Source: Deltaproteobacteria bacterium (GTDB lineage Bacteria; Desulfobacterota; Syntrophia; Syntrophales; UBA2210). Taken from it: a DNA stretch of 64,000 nt. Positions 2,077 through 33,884 of the stretch are shown piece after piece. The translations under genes and the position numbers were made by a program. The DNA is taken from NCBI GenBank assembly GCA_016933215.1, contig JAFGBH010000096.1:17788-81787 (forward strand), given 5' to 3'. A model generated the notes under the pieces. It did not search any database. It was not told the origin of the DNA and worked only from the letters and a program-made list of their open reading frames with translations. Every line of letters begins with the position of its first letter. Within the stretch, counting starts at the first letter, position 1.

Positions 2077-3611
2077 TGTCTCTTCTCAAACCACTCTTTC
2101 ATTGCAGAAACGAGACCCGTTATCTCATAAGGGCCCTGAACTATATCCACCCTGAGGCCGGCCTTTTGTGCCGCCTTTTCGGTAACCGGCCCGATACAGG
2201 CAATCCTGATATTTTCGGGAAGATTTAAACCTTCCCCCATTATTGTCATAAAATTATTCACCGTCGAGGGACTTGTAAAGGTAATCACCTCAACTTTTCC
2301 CTCTTCAATGAGTTGTTCAAGCTCCTTCCCGTCTCTTCCGGAACTCACCGTCCGGTATGCAACCGCAACATCAATCCTGGCACCCAGTTTTTTCAGGCTC
2401 TCGGGTATCACATCACGGGCAACCTCGGCCCTCGGAAGGAGAACCCTTGCACCCTCCATATCCTGCCCTTTCAGTGCCGCAACGACACCCTCGGAAATGA
2501 ATTCTTCGGGCACGATATCCACGGGAATTCCACGTTTTTCTATGGCCGCTTGCGTGGCCGGACCGATCGTACAGATTTTTATTCCTTTAAGATCACGCAC
2601 ATCTTTCCCCGCCACGTTGAGGCGATCGAAGAAAAATCTGACGCCGTTGGCGCTGGTGAAGATGATCCAGTCGTAATCTTCGATTCGTTCCAGAGCACGG
2701 TCGAGATCGTCAAAACTCTTGGGCGGGACTATTTCAATCGTAGGAAAATGTATGACACGAACCCCTTCCTCGGAAAGGAGGGAAGCGAGTTCCCCGGATT
2801 GTTTCTCCGGTCTCGTAACAACAATTCCCCTTCCGAAAAGGGGTTTCGTTTCAAACCAGTTCAATTTCTCTCTCAGCCTTGCTACCTCACCCACAACGAA
2901 TATGGCTGGCGGGGTCATCTTTTTTTCTTCCGCCAGATCCGGTATATCACCGAGCGCTCCCGAGAGGGTAAACTGATCGTGTGTCGTTCCCCATCTGATT
3001 ATGGCAGCCGGCGTATCGGGACTTCTTCCGTTTTCCAGAAGACTCTCGACGATCTGCGGCAGGTTCTTGACCCCCATCAGAAAGACAAGGGTTTCTATCC
3101 CTGAGAGTTTCTCCCAGTCAATCCTGCTTTCATCTTTTTTCGGGTCTTCGTGGCCTGTAACAAAGGCAACGGTGGAGGTATGCTCACGATGGGTGAGCGG
3201 TATCCCGGCATAGGCGGGAACGGAAATGGCGGATGTGACTCCCGGTACTATCTCAAAAGGAATTCCCGCCTCGAAGAGGAACTCCGCCTCCTCTCCACCC
3301 CTTCCAAATATGAAGGGATCTCCCCCCTTCAGCCTAGCAACGGTATTGCCCTCCGAGGCCTCTCGTACCAGAATCCGGTTGATTTCATCCTGAACTACGG
3401 TATGATGACCGCCCTTTTTCCCAACATAGACGAGGCGTGCATCGGCTCGCGCATAACCGAGGATACCAGGAGCAACAAGGTAGTCATAGACTATAACATC
3501 CGATTTTTCGAGACACCTCACCGCCTTCACGGTCAGAAGCCCCGGGTCACCGGGGCCAGCACCTATAATATAGACCTTCCCTTTTTGCTTCATATCAGCA
3601 AAGTTCCCCAT
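2073..3611 (-). CDS. cobA-hemD: Fused uroporphyrinogen-III C-methyltransferase / uroporphyrinogen-III synthase
   Basis: 512 aa. The N-terminal SUMT motif is VYIIGAGPGDPGLLTVKAVRCLEKSDVIVYDYLV. The C-terminal half (from about residue 255) is HemD-like (GRGIVVTRP...IIFTSANGV). Confidence 0.9.
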   Translation of the reverse strand: MGNFADMKQKGKVYIIGAGPGDPGLLTVKAVRCLEKSDVIVYDYLVAPGILGYARADARLVYVGKKGGHHTVVQDEINRILVREASEGNTVARLKGGDPFIFGRGGEEAEFLFEAGIPFEIVPGVTSAISVPAYAGIPLTHREHTSTVAFVTGHEDPKKDESRIDWEKLSGIETLVFLMGVKNLPQIVESLLENGRSPDTPAAIIRWGTTHDQFTLSGALGDIPDLAEEKKMTPPAIFVVGEVARLREKLNWFETKPLFGRGIVVTRPEKQSGELASLLSEEGVRVIHFPTIEIVPPKSFDDLDRALERIEDYDWIIFTSANGVRFFFDRLNVAGKDVRDLKGIKICTIGPATQAAIEKRGIPVDIVPEEFISEGVVAALKGQDMEGARVLLPRAEVARDVIPESLKKLGARIDVAVAYRTVSSGRDGKELEQLIEEGKVEVITFTSPSTVNNFMTIMGEGLNLPENIRIACIGPVTEKAAQKAGLRVDIVQGPYEITGLVSAMKEWFEKRQ

Positions 3612-4557
3612 AGACCGAATCCAATACTGCCCTGCCTCCCCTGGAGAGGATAGTTTCAGCCAGGGAATTCCCCAACTCCTCCCCGTCTTCGATTGCTCCC
3701 CTTACCTCATCTTCTATAACGATTTTGCCGTCGATACTCCCCACGAGCCCTTTGAGAATCAGTATGTCTCCCCGCTTTCTTCCGATACATGCTATCGGCA
3801 CCTGACACCCCCCACCGAGAGTCCTGAGAAAGGCCCGTTCGGCCGATACCTCGGTAAAGGTTTCTCCGTGATTTAAAAAGGAAACCATCTCCCTTATTTC
3901 ATCATCATCTTTTCTCACCTCGATACAGAGCACACCCTGCCCTGCCGAAGGGAGCATCGTTTCAACCGGGATATACTGCGACACCTTCGTCGCCCACCCC
4001 ATTCTCTTCATCCCTGCGGCCGCGGCAATAATTCCCTCAAGACCCTCCGTTTCTATCTTCTTTATCCTGGTCCCGAGATTTCCCCGTATGGGAACTACCT
4101 CGATATCGGGGAGAAAATTCAGGAGCTGCATCCTCCTCCTGAGAGAACCCGTACCTATCCTCGCCCCCTTGGGAAGCTCCTCCATCTTCATGTTATATTT
4201 CGATATCAAGACGTCTCTCGGGTCCTCCCTCTCGGGAACCGCTGTAATCGCAAGCTCGTCGGGAAGCTCAACGGGAACGTCTTTCATGCTATGTACAGCA
4301 ATTCGTATCTCTTTTTGCAGAAGGGCCTCTTCTATCTCCTTTACGAAGACACCTTTCCCCCCTATTTTGACCAGGGAGATATTCTGCATTCTGTCGCCCC
4401 TTGTCTTTATGGGAACGATCTCGAGGGAGATGTCTCGATATTTGCCTTTAATCTTCTCGGCGATACAACGTGCCTGAACCAGCGCAAGTTCGCTTCCCCT
4501 GGTTCCAATCCTTATCGTTTCGATGCGAATGCCTCCAAACTTTATCGGTTTTTCCAC
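3595..4557 (-). CDS. hemC: Hydroxymethylbilane synthase (porphobilinogen deaminase)
   Basis: 320 aa. It has the IRIGTRGSELALVQA motif and RGNLGTRIKK. It lies in the heme cluster. Confidence 0.92.
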   Translation of the reverse strand: MEKPIKFGGIRIETIRIGTRGSELALVQARCIAEKIKGKYRDISLEIVPIKTRGDRMQNISLVKIGGKGVFVKEIEEALLQKEIRIAVHSMKDVPVELPDELAITAVPEREDPRDVLISKYNMKMEELPKGARIGTGSLRRRMQLLNFLPDIEVVPIRGNLGTRIKKIETEGLEGIIAAAAGMKRMGWATKVSQYIPVETMLPSAGQGVLCIEVRKDDDEIREMVSFLNHGETFTEVSAERAFLRTLGGGCQVPIACIGRKRGDILILKGLVGSIDGKIVIEDEVRGAIEDGEELGNSLAETILSRGGRAVLDSVYGELC

Positions 4558-4754: not shown

Positions 4755-6083
4755 ATGGTCGAAAAAGTCATTATCATGGGGGCGGCCGGCCGGGATTTTC
4801 ACAACTTCAATGTCTACTTCAGGAACAATCCCCGCTATGAGGTGGTTGCCTTTACGGCAGCCCAGATACCGAATATCGAAGAGCGTCTCTATCCTCCCGA
4901 ACTTGCAGGAAACCAATATCCTGAAGGAATTCCCATATATCCCGAAGCCGACCTGCCCGATCTCATCAAAAGATTTACAACAGATCTGGTGGTCTTTTCA
5001 TACAGCGATGTCCCCCACACCGAGGTCATGCACAAGGCCTCTCTCGCCATGGCTCACGGCGCCGATTTCATCATTATCGGTGCGTTCTACACCATGCTGA
5101 AGGCACAAAGACCGGTTATAGCCGTATGCGCGGTACGAACGGGCTGCGGCAAGTCACAGACAACGAGAAAGGTCTGTTCCATTTTAAGGAATCTCAACAA
5201 AAAAGTCGTGGTGGTTCGCCACCCCATGCCTTACGGAGATTTGAGAGTTCAGGAAGTTCAGCGTTTTTCATCTTACGATGACTTCGAACGGCACAAGTGT
5301 ACCATCGAAGAGCTGGAAGAATACGAACCCCTCGTTGATCAGAAGATCGTCGTCTATGCCGGTGTCGATTACGAAAAGATTCTGAGGGAGGCGGAAAGGG
5401 AAGCAGACATCATTGTATGGGACGGGGGAAATAACGACACGCCCTTCTACCGGCCCGATATACACATCGTTCTTTTCGATCCCCATCGTGCAGGTCACGA
5501 ATTATCATACTTTCCCGGTGAAACGAATATGCGCATGGCCGATATCGCAATCATCAACAAGGTGGACACGGCATCACTTGCGCAGGTGGAACAGGTGAGA
5601 AAAAATATAGAGCTTCACAATGCAAAGGCCGAAATCGTTCTCGCCGAATCACCGGTCATTGTGAGCAGACCCGAGCGCATAAAGGGAAAACGGGTTCTCG
5701 TGGTTGAAGACGGCCCCACCCTTACCCACGGCGAGATGCCCTATGGTGCAGGCGTTATTGCGGCAAAGGAATTTCATGCCGCCGAGATCGTCGATCCGAG
5801 GCCATACGCTGAGGGTACCATTCATGAAACCTACCTTCGCTATCCCCACACCGGAGCTGTCCTCCCCGCAATGGGATACAGTGCCGATCAGATACGGGAC
5901 CTTGAGACTACCATTAACAGGGCTGACTGTGATCTTGTCCTTTTTGCCACACCGATTCATCTTACCCGAATTGTCTCAATCGAAAAGCCGGCCATTCGCG
6001 TACGGTATGAATATCAGGATCATGGAAGTCCCGCACTGGAGGAGATACTTATCGAAAGATTGAATTTACAACAACTACACTGA
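4755..6083 (+). CDS. COG2403-type P-loop protein (annotated in databases as cyclic 2,3-diphosphoglycerate synthetase-like / predicted GTPase)
   Basis: 442 aa. The N-terminus is MVEKVIIMGAAGRDFHNFNVYFRNNP and there is a P-loop-like AVRTGCGKSQTT. The family assignment is from memory; the bacterial function is unknown. Confidence 0.6.
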   Translation: MVEKVIIMGAAGRDFHNFNVYFRNNPRYEVVAFTAAQIPNIEERLYPPELAGNQYPEGIPIYPEADLPDLIKRFTTDLVVFSYSDVPHTEVMHKASLAMAHGADFIIIGAFYTMLKAQRPVIAVCAVRTGCGKSQTTRKVCSILRNLNKKVVVVRHPMPYGDLRVQEVQRFSSYDDFERHKCTIEELEEYEPLVDQKIVVYAGVDYEKILREAEREADIIVWDGGNNDTPFYRPDIHIVLFDPHRAGHELSYFPGETNMRMADIAIINKVDTASLAQVEQVRKNIELHNAKAEIVLAESPVIVSRPERIKGKRVLVVEDGPTLTHGEMPYGAGVIAAKEFHAAEIVDPRPYAEGTIHETYLRYPHTGAVLPAMGYSADQIRDLETTINRADCDLVLFATPIHLTRIVSIEKPAIRVRYEYQDHGSPALEEILIERLNLQQLH

Positions 6084-13571: not shown

Positions 13572-13647
13572 GGGTCGGTAGCTCAGTCGGTAGAGCACGG
13601 GACTGAAAATCCCGGTGTCGGCAGTTCGATTCTGCCCTGACCCACCA
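13572..13647 (+). tRNA. tRNA-Phe (anticodon GAA), CCA encoded
   Basis: 76 nt, folded by hand. The acceptor stem is GGGTCGG/CTGACCC, the D arm GCTC-AGTCGGTA-GAGC, and the anticodon stem CGGGA/TCCCG with loop CTGAAAA. The T arm is GGCAG-TTCGATT-CTGCC, and it ends in ACCA. Confidence 0.95.
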
Positions 13648-13686
13648 TTGGTATTAAGGGGTTAGTCACTTTGGCTGGCCCCTTTT
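13600..13686 (+). repeat. attL: direct repeat formed by the 3' 48 nt of tRNA-Phe plus downstream hairpin region
   Basis: 51 bp are identical to 33589-33639. The match then continues imperfectly (AAGGGGTTAG(T/C)CACTTTGGCTGGCCCCTTTT) to about 13686 / 33675. Confidence 0.85.
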
Positions 13687-14762
13687 TTCGTCCCAAAATC
13701 TGCAAATGTAACTGTTTTGTAACCACGCTGCTCATTTAGGTATATTTCCTGTTTCTGGGCTGCCAATTTCAGGTCATCGGCACTCACAATATTGTATCGC
13801 TCGAATACTGATCTTGTTTTATGTCCTGAAATCATCATAGCAACCCGCTCGGGAACACCAGCTCTCACCATATTTCTAACCGCTGTACGTCTCAAATCAT
13901 GGAATAGCTTTTTGCCTATTTTTGCTCCCTTGCATGCAGTATTCCACGACTTTCTTAACTGCTTTATCCTGTCGCTCCCGTTTTTGTTCGTAAACACATA
14001 AGGCGTCAGTTTACCGGCTTTTTTTCTTGCCTCCCATTGCGCATTAATAACCGTTTTCAACTCGTCATCAAGATAAACGATACGACCCTCGTTGTTCTTG
14101 GTCTCCCCAGCCTCAAGCCTCACAATGCCATTTTTAAGGTCAACGTGGCTCCACGTTAGCTTACTGATCTCTGACTTACGCCACCCTGACTTATAGGCAA
14201 AAGTCACAAAACCCCTTAAGTGTTCCGGTAATTTGCCCCTCAAGGCTAAAAACTCCTCATGCTCGAAGAAACCCTTCCTGACATTATTCTCTTTCAGCAT
14301 AGAGATGTAAGGAACCCTATCGACCTTCGGCGGAGTCTGCTGCGCACCGAGATTCAACATTCGCTTGAGTGCAGAAAGTTCACGATTGATTGTCGCGTTC
14401 TTCGCCTTTTCCATTTGCCTCTTCTCAACATATTTATTGATCAGGGGAGTCGTTATATCGACCACTTTCATACCTTCAAAGTAGTCTTTCAGGCGATCCA
14501 CGCTCCGCTCGGCACGGTCAAGAGACTTCTTACCGTTAATCCTATAGTCAGCAAGAAACTCTTCGGCCAACTCATCGAACCTCACTTTCTCAAAGTGCAC
14601 ACCCGGTATTTTACCCTGCGTAATTTCCCCTTCACGCTTTTTTAGTAAACCTCTCGCTACTCCCACTTTATCGCTATGGGTAGATTCGACATATGGCTTC
14701 CCGTTGCGATAGTACTTAATTGTGTAATTCTTTCCTCGTCTATAGATACATCCCATTTTCAC
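13662..14762 (-). CDS. int: Tyrosine-type site-specific recombinase (phage integrase family)
   Basis: 366 aa. The C-terminal catalytic signature is LFHDLRRTAV ... ISGHKTRSVFERYNIV (R..HxxR..Y). It is adjacent to the tRNA, and its last codons lie inside the att repeat. The start is GTG 14762 or ATG 14756. Confidence 0.9.
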   Translation of the reverse strand: MKMGCIYRRGKNYTIKYYRNGKPYVESTHSDKVGVARGLLKKREGEITQGKIPGVHFEKVRFDELAEEFLADYRINGKKSLDRAERSVDRLKDYFEGMKVVDITTPLINKYVEKRQMEKAKNATINRELSALKRMLNLGAQQTPPKVDRVPYISMLKENNVRKGFFEHEEFLALRGKLPEHLRGFVTFAYKSGWRKSEISKLTWSHVDLKNGIVRLEAGETKNNEGRIVYLDDELKTVINAQWEARKKAGKLTPYVFTNKNGSDRIKQLRKSWNTACKGAKIGKKLFHDLRRTAVRNMVRAGVPERVAMMISGHKTRSVFERYNIVSADDLKLAAQKQEIYLNEQRGYKTVTFADFGTKKGASQSD

Positions 14763-18789: not shown

Positions 18790-19025
18790 TCCCCCCCCCT
18801 TAATCTTGTGGTCATAATTAATGATACGCTCCTGAAAATTTTTTTCAAGTAAGATTATATGTGTCCAACCTTTCATAGAATAACGCCTGCTAATCGTTGG
18901 GATTATATAAATGTGATTATCCAAGATTATAAATCGAAATGTTTATAGATTTAACGACTTGCTCACAAGTGAGGGCCGCTACGCGGCCCGCAGCTGGTGA
19001 AGCAAAAGGTTAGGCAGTTACTATG

Positions 19026-20677: not shown

Positions 20678-20881
20678 TTTTCTCTCCCCCTCACTAAGAG
20701 ATGAATGTCTTATGAATACGTAATTCCATATAAACTATAAGAGGATGGCACGGAACTGTCAATTGGAAACTATAGTCAGAAAACATCAATGATTGGCTTC
20801 CGTCCTGAAAATGAGCGCTGCATTTAGCGAACGAGCAGATGAGAATCATTGACAGTTTTCACATAATGGTTTAATCATAAT

Positions 20882-20984
20882 GTTAGAGACACTGTTACCT
20901 CCTTTTGTAACAGCTGTCGATTCTACTATAATTCGTTTTACGGTCCCGGGCTATACAGCGTCGTAGCTCGGGACCACTTTTTTT
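20882..20984 (+). ncRNA. Putative small RNA, copy 1 (promoter-hairpin-terminator unit)
   Basis: Upstream are TTGACA (20849-20854) and an extended -10 TGgTTTAAT (20867-20875). Hairpin CTGTTAC/GTAACAG (20892-20913) has CCTCCTTTT in its loop. The terminator is GGTCCCGGGCT/AGCTCGGGACC (20942-20975) plus T7. A paralogue lies at 33219-33323. Confidence 0.4.
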
Positions 20985-21018
20985 ACACGACGTCTATATG
21001 GATACGGGTGGCATATAG

Positions 21019-21102
21019 ATGGATTTAATCATTGCATTCATCGGTCTGGTCGTAATCATATTTTTAGTATGCTGGACAATCAGTGAGATCTTCTTTAAAT
21101 AG
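21019..21102 (+). CDS. Candidate 27-aa hydrophobic peptide (MDLIIAFIGLVVIIFLVCWTISEIFFK)
   Basis: An ATG with GGGTGG 7 nt upstream. It is a single predicted TM helix with a charged tail, too short for the ORF track, and has no supporting homology. Confidence 0.25.
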   Translation: MDLIIAFIGLVVIIFLVCWTISEIFFK

Positions 21103-21340
21103 GGCTACATCTGAAAGTTCAAGATCGATTGTTCATCCATTAATGATGGCTTAGTTTTATACATTGCTTTTTCTGTACAATATTCCTTGTCATCACTGAG
21201 TAAAATTTTAGAAGGATGAATTCATCCTGGTTGCTCATTCCAGGGTGCTTGACATTTACGTTCCGATATAACAGATTATTTTCTGCTGTTGTAGCTTCTT
21301 GCTTGAAGCAATTTATTTTAAAACAGACTGAGGCAGATGT

Positions 21341-22279: not shown

Positions 22280-22909
22280 GAGCGGAATGTCCTTCAGGAT
22301 TTGCTTACTGAGACAGGCGAAGTAACTTTTGTGAAAATTGCAGAGCTCAAAGTAAAATCACCTTATGAAAGATACGCAACCCAAGAAAAAGAAAAGAGTC
22401 AGGTATCCGATACCGGAAGAGGGGCCGTACCTTCCGAAGGAAAAGTACAGACAATCTTCCCCGAAATCATATCCGGTATTACAGGAGCGTATCGAACTGG
22501 TACGCTGACAGTCACATTGCTATCGCAAATTATAATCCTAAGTATGGTTTTTTCATCTGTTGAATTAGATGAGATAGCTACAATCAAATCTGACACTTGA
22601 CATATAGAGGTAGTAGCCATAGCCACCCTTCCGCCTGCTAATCTTTGGTATCGATTGAGCGCAAAAAGCCACCATTGCAACTACAAATCTTCAATGTTAA
22701 TCAGTGAAAAATACAAGTCCCAGCAATGATATTTTTGTAATATAATAAAATATTTGACTAATATCTTAATGAAGGATATTCTTCATCTTGGTTTTATTGA
22801 GAATTTGTTCTGTTTTAGCGTTATCGAGTTGACCTGAATTTTCAAAGTGAGGGAATTATGGTCAGACTATTGAAGCCCTGTTTCTCAAAAAGAGAGGCAG
22901 GGTTTTGTT

Positions 22910-23461
22910 TTGGATAGGTACAAAGGGCACTGCTCCACATTGTTTAAAAGCGTTTTTCGTTATGTTGCTCTCGATGTTGAGACAACGGGTCTGTCTCCCC
23001 GAAAAGGTCATAGGATAATCGAAGTAGGGGCAGTCGCCATTGAATATGGGAAACCAGTAGGAGAATTGTCGAGTCTTGTAAATTCCGGTAGAAAAATACC
23101 ATGTCAGACTGCGCGAATACACGGAATAACCGATGCAATGCTCACTAATCAGCCTTTGCCCGATGAAATAATGCCACGATTATGGGATTTCCTGAAGGAC
23201 AGTATTGTAATCGCCCATAATGCAAGGTTCGATGTTGAGTTTCTCAGACATGAATTTGGACTAATTTCATTACAGTTGGAGAATAAGGCTGTCTGTACAC
23301 TGGAAATGAGCAGAAAGCTCTATCCAGGGTTGCCCAATCACAGGCTCAATACCGTTTACAGATATTTGTTTGGAGAAAAGCCCGCGAATGTTCAAAGGCA
23401 TCGGGCGCTCGATGATGCGAAGATGACTGCCGCAATATGGCTTGAAATGGTTAAGCGATGA
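22910..23461 (+). CDS. DnaQ-like DEDDh 3'-5' exonuclease (DNA polymerase III epsilon-like), stand-alone, coupled to cas3
   Basis: 183 aa with a TTG start. The three motifs are ExoI ALDVETTGL, ExoII IAHNARFDVEFL and ExoIII HRALDDAKMTA. Its stop TGA overlaps the cas3 ATG (ATGA at 23458-23461). Confidence 0.8.
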   Translation: MDRYKGHCSTLFKSVFRYVALDVETTGLSPRKGHRIIEVGAVAIEYGKPVGELSSLVNSGRKIPCQTARIHGITDAMLTNQPLPDEIMPRLWDFLKDSIVIAHNARFDVEFLRHEFGLISLQLENKAVCTLEMSRKLYPGLPNHRLNTVYRYLFGEKPANVQRHRALDDAKMTAAIWLEMVKR

Positions 23462-27811: not shown

Positions 27812-27865
27812 TCGTAACAAGGACTGTTTTTTTAAAACTCTTTTATAACGAAAGGAGGTGTTTTT

Positions 27866-28369
27866 ATGAATGAGGGAAAGTATCTCAGATTTTCGAAGGA
27901 TTCGCCGGAGAGCAAGGCGTTGCTCGAGTGGTGGCGAGGGTTGGAAAATAATCGGGGTGATCGTGCCGCCCTCCGACGCTGTCGCAGCCTTACAGAAGTG
28001 GTGTTTGTTCCTTCTTATCACCGTTTGAGGCAGGAATTACTTCATTTCGGAAATGTAGACAGCGAGGGACTTGCAATAACCGTGGCCCTTGCTGCCCAAG
28101 TGAAGGCAGACAACTCCGAGCATACCCTTGCCCAGCAAATGGCTCTTCCCAAAGCGGGCGGCTCTGCCAAGGTAAGCGGTTTACGTTTCCGGCGACTGCT
28201 CAAGATCCAGCGCAGGGAAGATATGTATCACGCTATGATTAGAATCATGGCACTTTTGGGGAGTTCGCTTAACCTTATAAGCTTGGCCGAAAGCGTTTAC
28301 TGGTGGAATGATCTTACGAGAAAAAAGTGGGCATTCGAGTATTACACAAACGCTCCATCAGAAAAATGA
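27866..28369 (+). CDS. cse2: Cascade small subunit Cse2/CasB (Cas11e)
   Basis: 167 aa. The segment LLEWWRGLENNRGDRAALRRCRSLTEV is Cse2-like. It is in the canonical position. Confidence 0.88.
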   Translation: MNEGKYLRFSKDSPESKALLEWWRGLENNRGDRAALRRCRSLTEVVFVPSYHRLRQELLHFGNVDSEGLAITVALAAQVKADNSEHTLAQQMALPKAGGSAKVSGLRFRRLLKIQRREDMYHAMIRIMALLGSSLNLISLAESVYWWNDLTRKKWAFEYYTNAPSEK

Positions 28370-29469: not shown

Positions 29470-30195
29470 ATGCGTGAATATCTTATGTTTAGACTTTACG
29501 GTCCAATGGCCTCTTGGGGCGATATCGCGGTGGGCGAATACCGGCCAAGCTACGCGCATCCGAGCAAATCGGCGGTACTGGGCATACTTGCCGCTGCCGT
29601 GGGCATGCGTCGCGAAGAAGAAGACAAACAGCGACAATTTGCCGATTCATACGGCTTTGCCGTACAGGTTCATGCCGCCGGGACACTCTTGCGCGATTAT
29701 CATACAATACAGGTGCCACCGAAACAAAGGGGTGTAAAGCATGCTACACGTCGTTCGGAACTTTTGGCCCCCCAACTGAACACCATCCTTTCAAGTCGAG
29801 ATTATAGGTGCGATGCCTTTTATACCATTGCAATCTGGGATCTCGTCGAACATCCGCCTTACAGCCTTGGTGAACTTGCCTCATCTCTCGCGTGTCCAGT
29901 ATTCACCATTTACCTCGGGCGTAAATCATGTCCGCCGTCACTCTCCATGCAAGCCCGCACTATAAGAGCGGAAAATCTAAAACAGGCCTTTTTGAATGTT
30001 AACTTCTCCGATAAGGATATACCGTCTGGTTTGCCAAAGAGCGGGCATATTGCGACCTACTGGGAAGGTAGCGATAGCGGTTTTGAAAGCGAACATGTCA
30101 TTATTCGTCGCGATAATCCTACAAGCCGCCGTCGGTGGCAGTTCGCGGATCGTGAAGAACGGTATGCGGGTGTTGCATCGGTGAAGGAGGGATAG
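29470..30195 (+). CDS. cas5: Cascade subunit Cas5e (CasD)
   Basis: 241 aa. MREYLMFRLYGPMASWGDIAVGEYRPS...SKSAVLGILAAAVG parallels E. coli CasD. Confidence 0.93.
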   Translation: MREYLMFRLYGPMASWGDIAVGEYRPSYAHPSKSAVLGILAAAVGMRREEEDKQRQFADSYGFAVQVHAAGTLLRDYHTIQVPPKQRGVKHATRRSELLAPQLNTILSSRDYRCDAFYTIAIWDLVEHPPYSLGELASSLACPVFTIYLGRKSCPPSLSMQARTIRAENLKQAFLNVNFSDKDIPSGLPKSGHIATYWEGSDSGFESEHVIIRRDNPTSRRRWQFADREERYAGVASVKEG

Positions 30196-30199
30196 GAAT

Positions 30200-30883
30200 A
30201 TGTATATGAGCAGGATTAAATTAAAGCGGGATGCGCCAAGTGTGAAGGAACTTGTGAAATTGCTGAGCGGCGATGGATATCAGGCACATCGCCTCATATG
30301 GAACCTTTATGCGGACACCAAGGAGAGAAAAAGGGATTTTCTTTACAGACAAGAGGGAGACGGTATTTGGCCCTTTTTCTATGCGGTATCGGAACGTTTC
30401 CCCATAGACAAAACCGGTACGTGGCAGATTGATTCTAAGAGCTACTCTCCGAAGTTATCAAAAGGGCAGCCACTATCCTTCGTCATTCGTGTTAATCCGA
30501 TTCGAGCAAAAAGAGATGAGCAAAACAAACTGCACAGACATGATATCGTAATGGATGCTAAAACCCATGCAAAGCAACAAGGAAACAGATTCGGCGGAGA
30601 TAAATCGCTGGCTGATCTGATTCAGGAAGAAGGCGCAAAATGGCTTGACGCGCGGTCGGAAAGATATGGATTTTCCATAGATCACAGCCATATTCGCGCA
30701 GACGGATACCGGCAACACGTTGTATATAAAAGAAAAGCCACATCTCCGATCCGCCTCAGCTCGCTGGATATTGGCGGAGTCCTTACCGTCATCGAACCGG
30801 ACCTCTTTGTAAAAACACTGCATACGGGCATCGGCCCAGCAAAGGGGTTTGGCTGCGGACTGATGCTGGTAAAAAGGATTTAA
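30200..30883 (+). CDS. cas6e: CRISPR RNA endoribonuclease Cas6e (CasE)
   Basis: 227 aa. The C-terminus GIGPAKGFGCGLMLV matches the CasE signature GIGPAKSMGCGLL. Confidence 0.93.
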   Translation: MYMSRIKLKRDAPSVKELVKLLSGDGYQAHRLIWNLYADTKERKRDFLYRQEGDGIWPFFYAVSERFPIDKTGTWQIDSKSYSPKLSKGQPLSFVIRVNPIRAKRDEQNKLHRHDIVMDAKTHAKQQGNRFGGDKSLADLIQEEGAKWLDARSERYGFSIDHSHIRADGYRQHVVYKRKATSPIRLSSLDIGGVLTVIEPDLFVKTLHTGIGPAKGFGCGLMLVKRI

Positions 30884-32107: not shown

Positions 32108-32167
32108 AAAGTTGGTAGAAAGTATCGATCTTTGAAAACTTAATATTGCCGAATATATACGAGAAGT
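32108..32167 (+). promoter_or_regulatory. CRISPR leader (60-bp AT-rich spacer between cas2 stop and first repeat)
   Basis: The position and AT-richness are as in E. coli-type I-E loci. No motif could be verified. Confidence 0.55.
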
Positions 32168-32989
32168 ATGTTCCCCGCATACGCGGGGATGAACCGGTAT
32201 CCATCAGCGGCATTGGTATCTATAACAAATGTTCCCCGCATACGCGGGGATGAACCGAACCGAGAACCGACATAACCGTAACGTGGGAAATGTTCCCCGC
32301 ATACGCGGGGATGAACCGGCGATACTGGATGGCAGAAAGACCGTCACCCGATGTTCCCCGCATACGCGGGGATGAACCGATACACCAATTAAATAAGCCT
32401 TATTATAACTAATGTTCCCCGCATACGCGGGGATGAACCGCATTATTTTGTTATTAACCTCCAAAAAAGGGGATGTTCCCCGCATACGCGGGGATGAACC
32501 GTCCTGTAATATGTTGCTGTCTTTATAGAGGTCATGTTCCCCGCATACGCGGGGATGAACCGTAGCTCCCGCAAGTCTATCCTGGGCTATAGTAATGTTC
32601 CCCGCATACGCGGGGATGAACCGCTATTGGAATAGTTCGCCTTTTTATAGTTCATATGTTCCCCGCATACGCGGGGATGAACCGACATTTGATCTTGTCC
32701 TTCGGCTCGTACTCATATGTTCCCCGCATACGCGGGGATGAACCGCCTTTTAGCGCGTCCTTCAGGTGACGGTGAAAATGTTCCCCGCATACGCGGGGAT
32801 GAACCGTTCCCGAATTTCGTCTACTAAGTCAATCGGATATGTTCCCCGCATACGCGGGGATGAACCGGGAAAATACAATGTCTTAACTACTCTGAAGGCA
32901 TGTTCCCCGCATACGCGGGGATGAACCGCTACGGTAGACGAGTCGCCTGTGTCAACGGTAATGTTCCCCGCATACGCGGGGATGAACCG
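32168..32989 (+). CRISPR. Type I-E CRISPR array, 14 repeats / 13 spacers
   Basis: The 29-nt repeat ATGTTCCCCGCATACGCGGGGATGAACCG recurs at an exact 61-nt period (32168, 32229 ... 32961). All 14 copies are identical, and the spacers are all 32 nt. The repeat has the I-E stem CCCCGC/GCGGGG. Confidence 0.97.
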
Positions 32990-33184
32990 CCGGTCGTATA
33001 TCCTATATGCAACGTTGGCGGAGACTCTTGGCGATGAAAACTCGGTGGATGCAATATTAATATGACGGGCCTGGTATGATTTCTGTTATTGATTGCCACC
33101 TACAATCAATAAACGATTATTACTTCCAAGATTCATTTATTACAGGAAGAACTTGTCCTCTGTCGAATTATCAGGAGAGGTTTA

Positions 33185-33212
33185 TTGACACTCGTCACCA
33201 TGATGTTATAAT
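33185..33212 (+). promoter_or_regulatory. Near-consensus sigma70 promoter (TTGACA-N16-TGtTATAAT) driving sRNA-like copy 2
   Basis: TTGACA is at 33185-33190, the extended -10 TGT at 33204-33206 and TATAAT at 33207-33212. Confidence 0.5.
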
Positions 33213-33218
33213 TGCGAA

Positions 33219-33323
33219 GAATTGGGACCATGTCCCTCCTTTTGTATGCATCTCATGCTAATCTACAGTTATTCGCTTCACGGTCCCGGGCTATACAGCG
33301 TCGTAGCTCGGGACCACTTTTTT
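33219..33323 (+). ncRNA. Putative small RNA, copy 2
   Basis: Hairpin GGGAC-cat-GTCCC (33224-33236) is followed by the CCTCCTTTTGTA block (33235-33246). The terminator GGTCCCGGGCT/AGCTCGGGACC (33282-33315) plus T6 is identical to copy 1. Confidence 0.4.
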
Positions 33324-33588
33324 CAAGCTTGCATATTCAGAGAGAATAGGCGTTGCAAACTTTCAGAAAGAAGCTTTTATTAGGTAACTCATTTTCAGAA
33401 AGATATTTTTTCGTGACAAAGAATATACAGGCAAGATAAGGGGAACTTCCGGGTTTAGAGTGTAACTAAAATGTAACTGTCAAAACCTAAAATAACCTCA
33501 CAAAACCAAAGATGATTAAAATTGGCTTTTGTAAGTAGTTGATATGCAAATAATTAAAATTGGTAGCGAATCGTCTGATTTTCTTTTA

Positions 33589-33675
33589 GGACTGAAAATC
33601 CCGGTGTCGGCAGTTCGATTCTGCCCTGACCCACCATTGATATGAAGGGGTTAGCCACTTTGGCTGGCCCCTTTT
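33589..33675 (+). repeat. attR: duplicated 3' fragment of tRNA-Phe (not a functional tRNA) plus downstream hairpin region
   Basis: It is identical to 13600-13650 over 51 bp and then imperfect. It lacks the 5' acceptor, D arm and 5' anticodon-stem strand. Confidence 0.85.
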
Positions 33676-33884
33676 TGGTTCTTCCTGGTTTCTTTCGAAA
33701 TCAATGGCGAAAAGGGAAGAATAGTGGCTGTGGTTCCTTACAATTACTGAGAAATTGAGCTTCTTTTTCGTTGATTTATCCACCCATTGCTGATATAGGC
33801 TTTGGGCCTGAATTTCAGTAAAATCAATGGCCACAAATCACCACAAGCCATTCAGGACTGCCACATATATCATAAGGATTTGAA

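Follow-up and report, generated by a model that had tools for sequence, protein, structure and literature searches.

Twin small-RNA-like units on a CRISPR-bearing integrative island and a putative mobile RNA family with an anti-Shine-Dalgarno motif

Why does one integrative island carry two copies of a short unit with its own promoter and terminator, and what might such a unit do? We addressed this question in a 64-kb stretch of contig JAFGBH010000096.1 from a Deltaproteobacteria bacterium (hereafter the window), in which two plus-strand units had been predicted to encode paralogous regulatory RNAs. Measured from promoter to terminator, they lie at 20849-20984 (+, copy 1) and 33185-33323 (+, copy 2), the coordinates and strand being those of the original prediction, and flank the type I-E CRISPR-Cas (clustered regularly interspaced short palindromic repeats and associated genes) block of a ~20-kb island. 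On balance, we favor the interpretation that the units are 'moron'-like genes of mobile elements for trans-acting small RNAs (sRNAs) that would occlude Shine-Dalgarno (SD) sites.

Two units and their relatives

The promoter of copy 2 (33185-33212, +) reads TTGACA-16-TGt-TATAAT and scored 12 of 12 with an upstream TG in the promoter scan, as near to consensus as had been predicted. The promoter of copy 1 (20849-20878, +) aligns with it, scored 10 of 12 and has the same TTGACA at −35 (20849-20854), but its −10 element is weaker, with the scanner picking AATCAT (20873-20878, spacer of 18) and alignment with copy 2 picking TGG-TTTAAT (20867-20875, spacer of 15). Downstream of these promoters, the predicted RNAs of ~100 nt (20883-20984 and 33221-33323, both +) fold far better than shuffled sequences (z = −6.1 with a fold of −38.5 kcal/mol for copy 1, z = −4.7 for copy 2). 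Each ends in an intrinsic terminator (20942-20984 and 33282-33323, both +) that the terminator scan resolved into 13 pairs (8 of them G-C), a loop of 8 and a run of T7 in copy 1 or T6 in copy 2; the terminators are identical, as claimed, with stems of 13 pairs including G-U in place of the 11 bp originally given. As a separate observation, the 10-mer ATTGACAGTT occurs at 20754-20763 and, inverted and 84 nt apart, at 20848-20857, in the divergent promoters of a 74-aa gene and copy 1, and its −35 context recurs in the unit of locus L025, described below.

The likeness of the two copies is far from what chance would give. Within the 64 kb there are just two exact copies of the 12-nt block CCTCCTTTTGTA, at 20898 and 33235 (chance expectation of 0.27, allowing at most one mismatch), and just two of the 34-nt hairpin GGTCCCGGGCTATACAGCGTCGTAGCTCGGGACC, at 20942 and 33282 (0 in 100 shuffles). 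A repeat finder aligned 20922-20983 with 33262-33323 over 62 nt at 92% identity, with all five mismatches in the first 18 nt and the last ~45 nt identical.

Relatives of the units were found by a metagenome pattern scan in which only the −35 element, the 12-nt block and the T-run were fixed. Of the 29 loci returned, 27 were rejected, either for want of a terminator or because the block, read on the other strand, was the ribosome-binding site (RBS) of a real gene, the latter checked directly only for locus L020. The other two, L025 and L023, have features on which the scan had not selected: a −10 element at 16-nt spacing (TATACT with TG in L025, TATAAT in L023), strong terminators and a 5′ loop hairpin. 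Because these features lie beyond the pattern, they were counted as evidence of real homology. L025:4939-5076(−) resembles copy 2 from ~45 nt 5′ of the −35 element to ~45 nt beyond the terminator, and L023:2608-2745(−) has the 5′ hairpin of copy 1 (25 nt identical) followed by a completely different terminator. Copy 1 is therefore a mosaic, its 5′ part identical to L023 over those 25 nt and its 3′ part identical to copy 2, and this mosaicism, together with the terminator identity, points to probable recombination or gene conversion among members.

A sigma70-type promoter and a Rho-independent terminator were found for all four founding members (copy 1, copy 2, L025 and L023), and a covariance model, R1, was built from these four sequences. 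R1 scored the founders at 82-113 bits (111.7 bits for copy 1, at 20883-20983, and 86.9 bits for copy 2) and chance pattern matches at less than 24 bits; nothing else exceeded 24 bits in the whole window, searched with filters off, or in 30 other loci. Among loci retrieved by synteny, with the protein adjoining the L023 unit as anchor, R1 found two diverged syntenic members outside its training set, L050:1029-1125 (35.9 bits) and L046:10701-10796 (26.8 bits), which brings the family to six distinct members.

No cataloged RNA accounts for these units. At the gathering threshold, Rfam 15 identified only tRNA-Phe in the whole window; at E ≤ 10 it gave only junk long non-coding RNA and sRNA matches below 22 bits around both copies, and a comparison that included alpha-r14, c4 antisense RNA, sRNA-Xcc1 and riboswitches gave no family match. 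Blastn searches of plasmid and phage collections, INPHARED phages included, gave no match, and three pattern scans of IMG/VR gave either nothing or chance matches. A contig scan of species-representative genomes, with the seed and GGTCCCGGG, produced one match, in Syntrophaceae UBA6078, that we judged to be chance, as it straddles a stop codon and coding sequence of convergent orientation and has no promoter or terminator. Such exact-pattern scans are blind to variants such as the seed that is shorter by UU. The covariance-model and Rfam searches that the original prediction had proposed thus gave homologs from the one and no match from the other, and the two units proved to be paralogous, self-contained and apparently non-coding members, on the island, of a group with homologs elsewhere. 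Judged by sequence comparison, the units constitute a small, previously uncataloged RNA family carried on mobile DNA.

An exposed anti-Shine-Dalgarno motif

The most conserved part of the unit is the pyrimidine motif CCUCCUU of ACCUCCUU, in which all six members agree, although they vary in the flanks, the linker and even the whole terminator; ACCUCCUU is identical to the anti-SD tail of 16S rRNA. In copy 1, the block (20898-20909) falls in a 5′ hairpin (20888-20918, +) whose 8-nt loop, CUCCUUUU (20899-20906), sits on a 7-bp inner stem, itself part of an 11-bp stem with a single bulged C. L025 has the same 11-bp hairpin, bulged C and loop, with compensatory changes relative to copy 1 at three pairs, and L023 keeps the inner 5-6 bp (5 are paired in its fold), so that CUCCUUUU forms the loop in three of the four folded members. 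The accessible C/U-rich block of the original prediction is thus borne out, both in its exposure and in its conservation. Of the two copies, copy 1 alone has the block in a hairpin loop, a correction to the original description; in copy 2, the block (33235-33246) is single-stranded between two small hairpins.

In the four-sequence alignment, 82% of cells were paired, compared with 26-38% when the partners were slid, and in the prophage subgroup the L050 terminator has a compensatory U-A to C-G change. The folds of both copies are, as noted, highly non-random, which was one half of the structural check suggested at the outset; the other half, covariation, is taken up below. Since the structural evidence comes from six sequences, three of them close relatives, it appears supportive but short of conclusive.

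These features suggest how the units might work. Each would be an independent, constitutively promoted gene for a non-coding RNA of ~100 nt, laid out as promoter, 5′ hairpin, short linker and strong intrinsic terminator. Its functional core would be the invariant pyrimidine motif, exposed either at the tip of a hairpin or where the RNA is unpaired, which would pair with strong SD regions (AAGGAGGU-like) of target mRNAs, occlude the RBS and lower translation. The units have the general attributes of an sRNA gene, namely a promoter and terminator of their own and a conserved seed and structure with no conserved open reading frame (ORF). We infer action in trans by RBS occlusion because the motif equals the anti-SD tail, is exposed, and belongs to a design like that of alpha-r14/NfeR1 ('cuckoo') and AbcR. 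These alpha-proteobacterial RNAs are trans-acting sRNAs whose seed is an ultraconserved anti-SD motif in unpaired or loop regions of otherwise differing stems; they silence mRNAs by RBS occlusion and occur in multiple paralogous copies per genome (PMC10746234). The present family resembles them in its exposed anti-SD motif and its several paralogs. It differs in carrying a single ACCUCCUU(UU)GUA in one hairpin, whereas the alpha-r14/NfeR1 motif CCUCCUCCC is repeated in three hairpins, in showing no sequence or Rfam kinship with alpha-r14/NfeR1, and in its hosts, which are 'Deltaproteobacteria' metagenome-assembled genomes and metagenomes, on prophages and islands, a lineage different from that of alpha-r14.

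Several observations weigh against this interpretation. The 5′ stem is lost in copy 2, with the block left unpaired, and L046 has only a weak 5′ hairpin. In L050 and L046, both of which read ACCUCCUUGUA, the block has two fewer U, which leaves only ~8 nt truly invariant. The perfect identity of the two terminators over 45 nt, loop included, goes beyond simple terminator function and suggests either gene conversion or some additional constraint. Conservation with L025 also extends ~45 nt to either side of copy 2, beyond what an sRNA gene needs: on the 5′ side (33138-33184, +) the L025 alignment and the junction motif analysis reveal a near-palindrome, TTACAGGAAG (CTTC-NN-GAAG type), and on the 3′ side (33324-33372, +) the alignments show a stretch (AAGCTTGCATATTCAGAGAGAATAGGCGTT ... 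TTTCAGAAAGAAGC) that ends at a second copy of the junction motif. Complements of the 12-mer with at most two mismatches numbered 10, compared with 5.2 ± 2.2 expected, and so are not significantly enriched. Any anti-SD sequence matches strong RBSs, and target predictions therefore carry little weight. Finally, with only six members, three of them closely related, the support from covariation is thin.

Mobile settings and module-like behavior

The members of the family occupy three contexts (the island, Mu-like prophages and the array of L025) with no protein homologs in common. The island of the window (13600-33676) is integrated in tRNA-Phe between attachment repeats at 13600-13687 and 33589-33676, an 88-nt direct repeat of 97% identity made up of a piece of tRNA-Phe and its downstream terminator. 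It contains, with integrase, helix-turn-helix and RepO-like genes at the tRNA-proximal end, a divergent accessory operon, copy 1, pfkB, a DnaQ-like exonuclease gene, a complete type I-E cas operon (cas3 to cas2), a 14-repeat array and then copy 2, which lies just 3′ of the array and ~265 nt from attR; copy 1 is upstream of the cas operon. The type I-E locus is itself cargo of the tRNA-Phe island.

In L023 and its relatives L046-L049, the unit is found in Mu-like prophages directly 3′ of tail-fiber and 140-aa genes, where it adjoins a convergent AAA_15 (PtuA/AriA-like) ATPase module; the L050 unit likewise follows the tail-fiber genes of a Mu-like prophage. This module consists of 110-aa, 140-aa, AAA_15/SMC_N ATPase (PtuA/AriA-like) and 125-aa genes in L047-L049, and in L046 instead of 83-, 246- (weak PAPS_reduct), 141-, 435- (AAA_15/SMC_N) and 136-aa genes with a PDDEXK nuclease. 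The module is inserted at the end of the tail-fiber region, a typical prophage hotspot for defense genes and morons. Among more distant Mu-like prophages retrieved with Gp48 as anchor, L052 has no unit.

In L025, the unit lies antisense to a co-oriented accessory and defense gene array (AbiGi, PDC-S45, PDC-S31, LmuA-like protease, DUF2971, DUF4328), in which a filled site can be compared with a paralogous empty one. The empty site reads D2-CTTCCTGTAGT-D3 and the filled site D2-CTTCCTGAAGT, a unit of ~230 nt, CTTCCTGAAGT and a D3-like sequence, D2 and D3 being the flanking repeats. By this comparison, the L025 unit is a discrete module of ~230 nt bounded by the 11-nt direct repeat CTTCCTGAAGT, and the junctions of copy 2 are diverged versions of the same junctions. 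The array itself (L025 1-13573) comprises eleven co-oriented accessory or defense-type ORFs separated by short repeats and resembles a cassette array; some of its intergenic regions are hairpin-like (e.g., 2685-2825, z = −2.9), and a 170-nt segment, covering an upstream region and an N-terminus, is duplicated at 3621 and 5885. The D2 repeat (~70-90 nt, ending in GATTAGCAGGCG) occurs at 3478-3568, 4784-4874 and 10775-10865 of L025 and at 18883-18952 (−) and 22630-22691 (−) of the window, and nhmmer supports the kinship, with E = 2e-8 for the first of the window copies. The repeat lies 5′ of accessory genes and forms no hairpin fold.

These settings bear on whether the unit is simply part of something else. 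Copy 1 and L025 each have a divergent upstream gene, and the upstream gene of L023 ends in a terminator of its own, 8 nt ahead of the −35 element of the unit. Because upstream genes are divergent or separately terminated, the unit is not the 3′ untranslated region of an upstream gene, the finding in homologs that would have told against the original prediction. An integron gene cassette was also considered. Integron ORF-less cassettes such as sRNA-Xcc1 are like the L025 unit in placing an sRNA gene as a small mobile module among co-oriented accessory and defense genes, but integron cassettes have attC hairpins, whereas the D2/D3 flanks fold no better than shuffled sequences (z ~ +1), L025 has no integron integrase and there is no sequence kinship. 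This identification is not supported for the unit, although an integron-like array in L025 keeps some probability, given the hairpin-like intergenic regions elsewhere in it.

Prophage morons offer a closer parallel. They are autonomous promoter-gene-terminator units between phage or island operons, and the classic ones encode proteins; DicF and IpeX are examples of sRNAs encoded by prophages. The present units share with morons their autonomy, the placing of the L047 unit after Mu-like tail-fiber genes and the insertion in L025 relative to a paralogous empty site, and more generally the prophage units follow tail-fiber genes and are absent from L052. They are unrelated in sequence to known prophage sRNAs, and no phage record of INPHARED or IMG/VR matched them. 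In the manner of prophage morons, the module would have been dropped between other genes in the tRNA-Phe island, the Mu-like prophages and the defense-gene array.

Another explanation for the same mobility invokes a promoter/terminator module or mobile DNA in decay, with an RNA, if any, that has no function in trans; the unit would then be an insulator, an outward promoter or a recombination scar, and the twins would be rearrangement repeats. The direct-repeat boundaries of the L025 insertion, the flanks conserved with copy 2 beyond the RNA, the identical 3′ 45 nt of the copies, which suggest recombination or gene conversion, and the mosaic structure of copy 1 are all consistent with such a remnant. 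However, promoters of consensus type, a loop motif of 8 invariant nt and stem changes that compensate one another have been kept across otherwise unlike contexts, and no integrase or transposase lies between the two copies. We therefore regard a remnant without function in trans as unlikely.

CRISPR-Cas neighbors and the remaining alternatives

The position of the units, one on each side of the cas-CRISPR block, raised the possibility that they are dedicated regulators of the island CRISPR-Cas system, which would be a special case of the anti-SD mechanism in which Cascade subunits are repressed, cse2 by copy 1 and cas6e by copy 2. When the RBSs of 26 island genes were compared, the best candidate partner of copy 1 was cse2/cas11 (27848-27868, +), where ACGAAAGGAGGUG can pair over 13 bp with the loop region (−19.6 kcal/mol), and the best candidate partner of copy 2 was cas6e (30183-30202, +), where GAAGGAGGGAUA can pair over 12 bp with the variant UCCCUCCUU (−21.7 kcal/mol), the copy-2-specific UCCCUCC lengthening the pairing to GGAGGGA of cas6e. 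The remaining predicted duplexes ranged from −4 to −17 kcal/mol. Whole-window RNAduplex scans with the 60-nt 5′ parts produced long, meaningless interactions and were not used. The suggestion that targets might lie among island genes thus fared well in the ranking of cse2 and cas6e and poorly in specificity: these two genes simply have the most canonical SDs, and their predicted pairing is not distinguished from that of any generic strong SD.

Comparison with related loci also tells against a dedicated role. Six related I-E loci retrieved with Cas1 as anchor (Cas1 89-92% identical, representing about three contexts) have no unit within 10 kb, and no cas genes are found near the homologs L025, L023, L046 and L050. 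Nor do the units resemble the known small RNAs of CRISPR systems. CreA/CreT, CreR and RNA anti-CRISPRs (solitary repeat mimics) are, like the units, small, non-coding and next to cas genes or arrays, but they are defined by degenerate repeats, and none were found near the units: matches of at least 18 of 29 positions were at chance level and far away, and on the plus strand the 8-nt 5′ handle occurs only inside the array. A CreA/CreR-like or repeat-mimic RNA was accordingly rejected. No array spacer matches the units or the homolog loci. Because six close I-E loci lack the unit, the family is not CRISPR-specific; the CRISPR link appears to be incidental and the family a mobile-element accessory. 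The link to cas genes raised by the original prediction thus finds no backing as a dedicated one, and we consider a dedicated Cas regulator improbable, slightly more so than a functionless remnant.

A broader version of this idea is a mobile 'RNA moron' that tunes host or co-resident immunity, its loop mimicking the 16S rRNA 3′ tail and titrating or occluding the strongest SDs, with the copies throttling cse2 and, through UCCCUCC, cas6e. We offer it as speculation, with a probability lower again; if true, it would place an RNA-level governor, or a new RNA anti-CRISPR that is not a repeat mimic, beside the system that it controls.

Two features of the I-E locus itself were observed in passing. 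A stand-alone RNase_T/DnaQ-like exonuclease gene (22940-23461) overlaps the cas3 start codon and is found 5′ of cas3 in all six related I-E loci (L040-L045), which gives it the look of an accessory conserved in this I-E lineage, perhaps one for prespacer trimming. The cas2 stop codon is only ~60 nt from the first CRISPR repeat (32108-32168), and the leader is either unusually short or overlaps the end of cas2.

The remaining alternatives concern proteins encoded on or beside the units. The 61-aa ORF at 33076-33261 is present and, as noted originally, spans the copy 2 promoter; the protein collection has no exact match to the spurious ORFs over the units, and no candidate ORF is conserved on either strand, in agreement with the earlier view that no convincing protein is encoded. 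One could nevertheless imagine that the unit is the cis-antisense partner of a mini-ORF on the opposite strand (AAAAGGAGGUAACAUGG, with a perfect SD and start codon), acting as antitoxin or repressor in the manner of a type I toxin-antitoxin system or CreT, since a minus-strand SD and ATG (GTG in copy 1), 4-6 nt apart, are found in all four members examined. However, these minus-strand reading frames, of 3, 5, 20 and 32 codons, are unrelated to one another, and none is hydrophobic; scans of the four founders gave no convincing minus-strand promoter; and the hairpin accounts for the conserved CAUG, which forms its 5′ arm, with the A-to-C change of copy 1 compensated on the other arm. Type I antitoxins (Sok, Sib, IstR) are like the units in being small RNAs with their own promoter and terminator and a pyrimidine-rich region that could mask an RBS, but a toxin ORF is expected with them, and the units have no conserved hydrophobic ORF opposite or adjacent. 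The type I antitoxin reading mentioned in the original prediction is therefore not supported, and an antisense partner of a mini-ORF seems to us very doubtful.

A hydrophobic ORF of 27 codons (MDLIIAFIGLVVIIFLVCWTISEIFFK; 21021-21104, +) lies directly 3′ of the copy 1 terminator behind a weak GGTGG SD and is beside copy 1 only; its product is without a match in the protein collection and may be either a toxin-like peptide or a small membrane protein. Its RBS pairs poorly with the unit (−10.9 kcal/mol). This ORF enters a further explanation, in which copy 1 is the terminator-controlled 5′ leader, like an attenuator or riboswitch, of a downstream operon that runs from the 27-aa ORF through pfkB on to the cas genes. 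Copy 1 does point into that operon, and no other consensus promoter was found in 20985-21340, but no co-oriented gene follows the unit in the other members, an alternative anti-terminator pairing is lacking, the terminator, with 13 pairs and U7, is a very strong one, and no Rfam riboswitch matches, which makes a leader highly improbable.

Least probable of all is a plus-strand small or leader peptide (MLPPFV...) with CCTCCT as Pro-Pro codons and an ORF that runs, attenuator-like, into the terminator: although ATG-TTA-CCT-CCT-TTT-GTA is present in L023 and L025 and five of the seven variable columns of TCTAC..ACGG fall at third codon positions (copy 1, copy 2 and L025), that bias is not significant with three frames allowed (about p = 0.1), there is no SD, the AUG is buried in a stem, CTG replaces ATG in copy 1, copy 2 has both a frameshift and an in-frame TAA, the L025 frame meets no stop codon ahead of the terminator, the C-terminus in L023 is unrelated, the 2-nt deletion in the L050/L046 block breaks the frame, and the gene downstream of copy 2, L025 and L023 is either absent or convergent.

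We are thus left with moron-like genes for trans-acting sRNAs as the favored account of the units. Anti-SD sRNAs are well known, as are sRNAs of prophages, and the present family represents no new principle. Almost nothing has been charted, however, of the regulatory RNAs in uncultured Deltaproteobacteria/Desulfobacterota or in their prophages and islands, and this family is a compact case, its six members combining consensus promoters and an anti-SD motif of 8 invariant nt with clear module-like mobility. Should the units be expressed, they would be a non-coding 'moron' that spreads among prophages, defense arrays and a CRISPR-bearing island, and the motif would provide a simple seed for identifying its targets.

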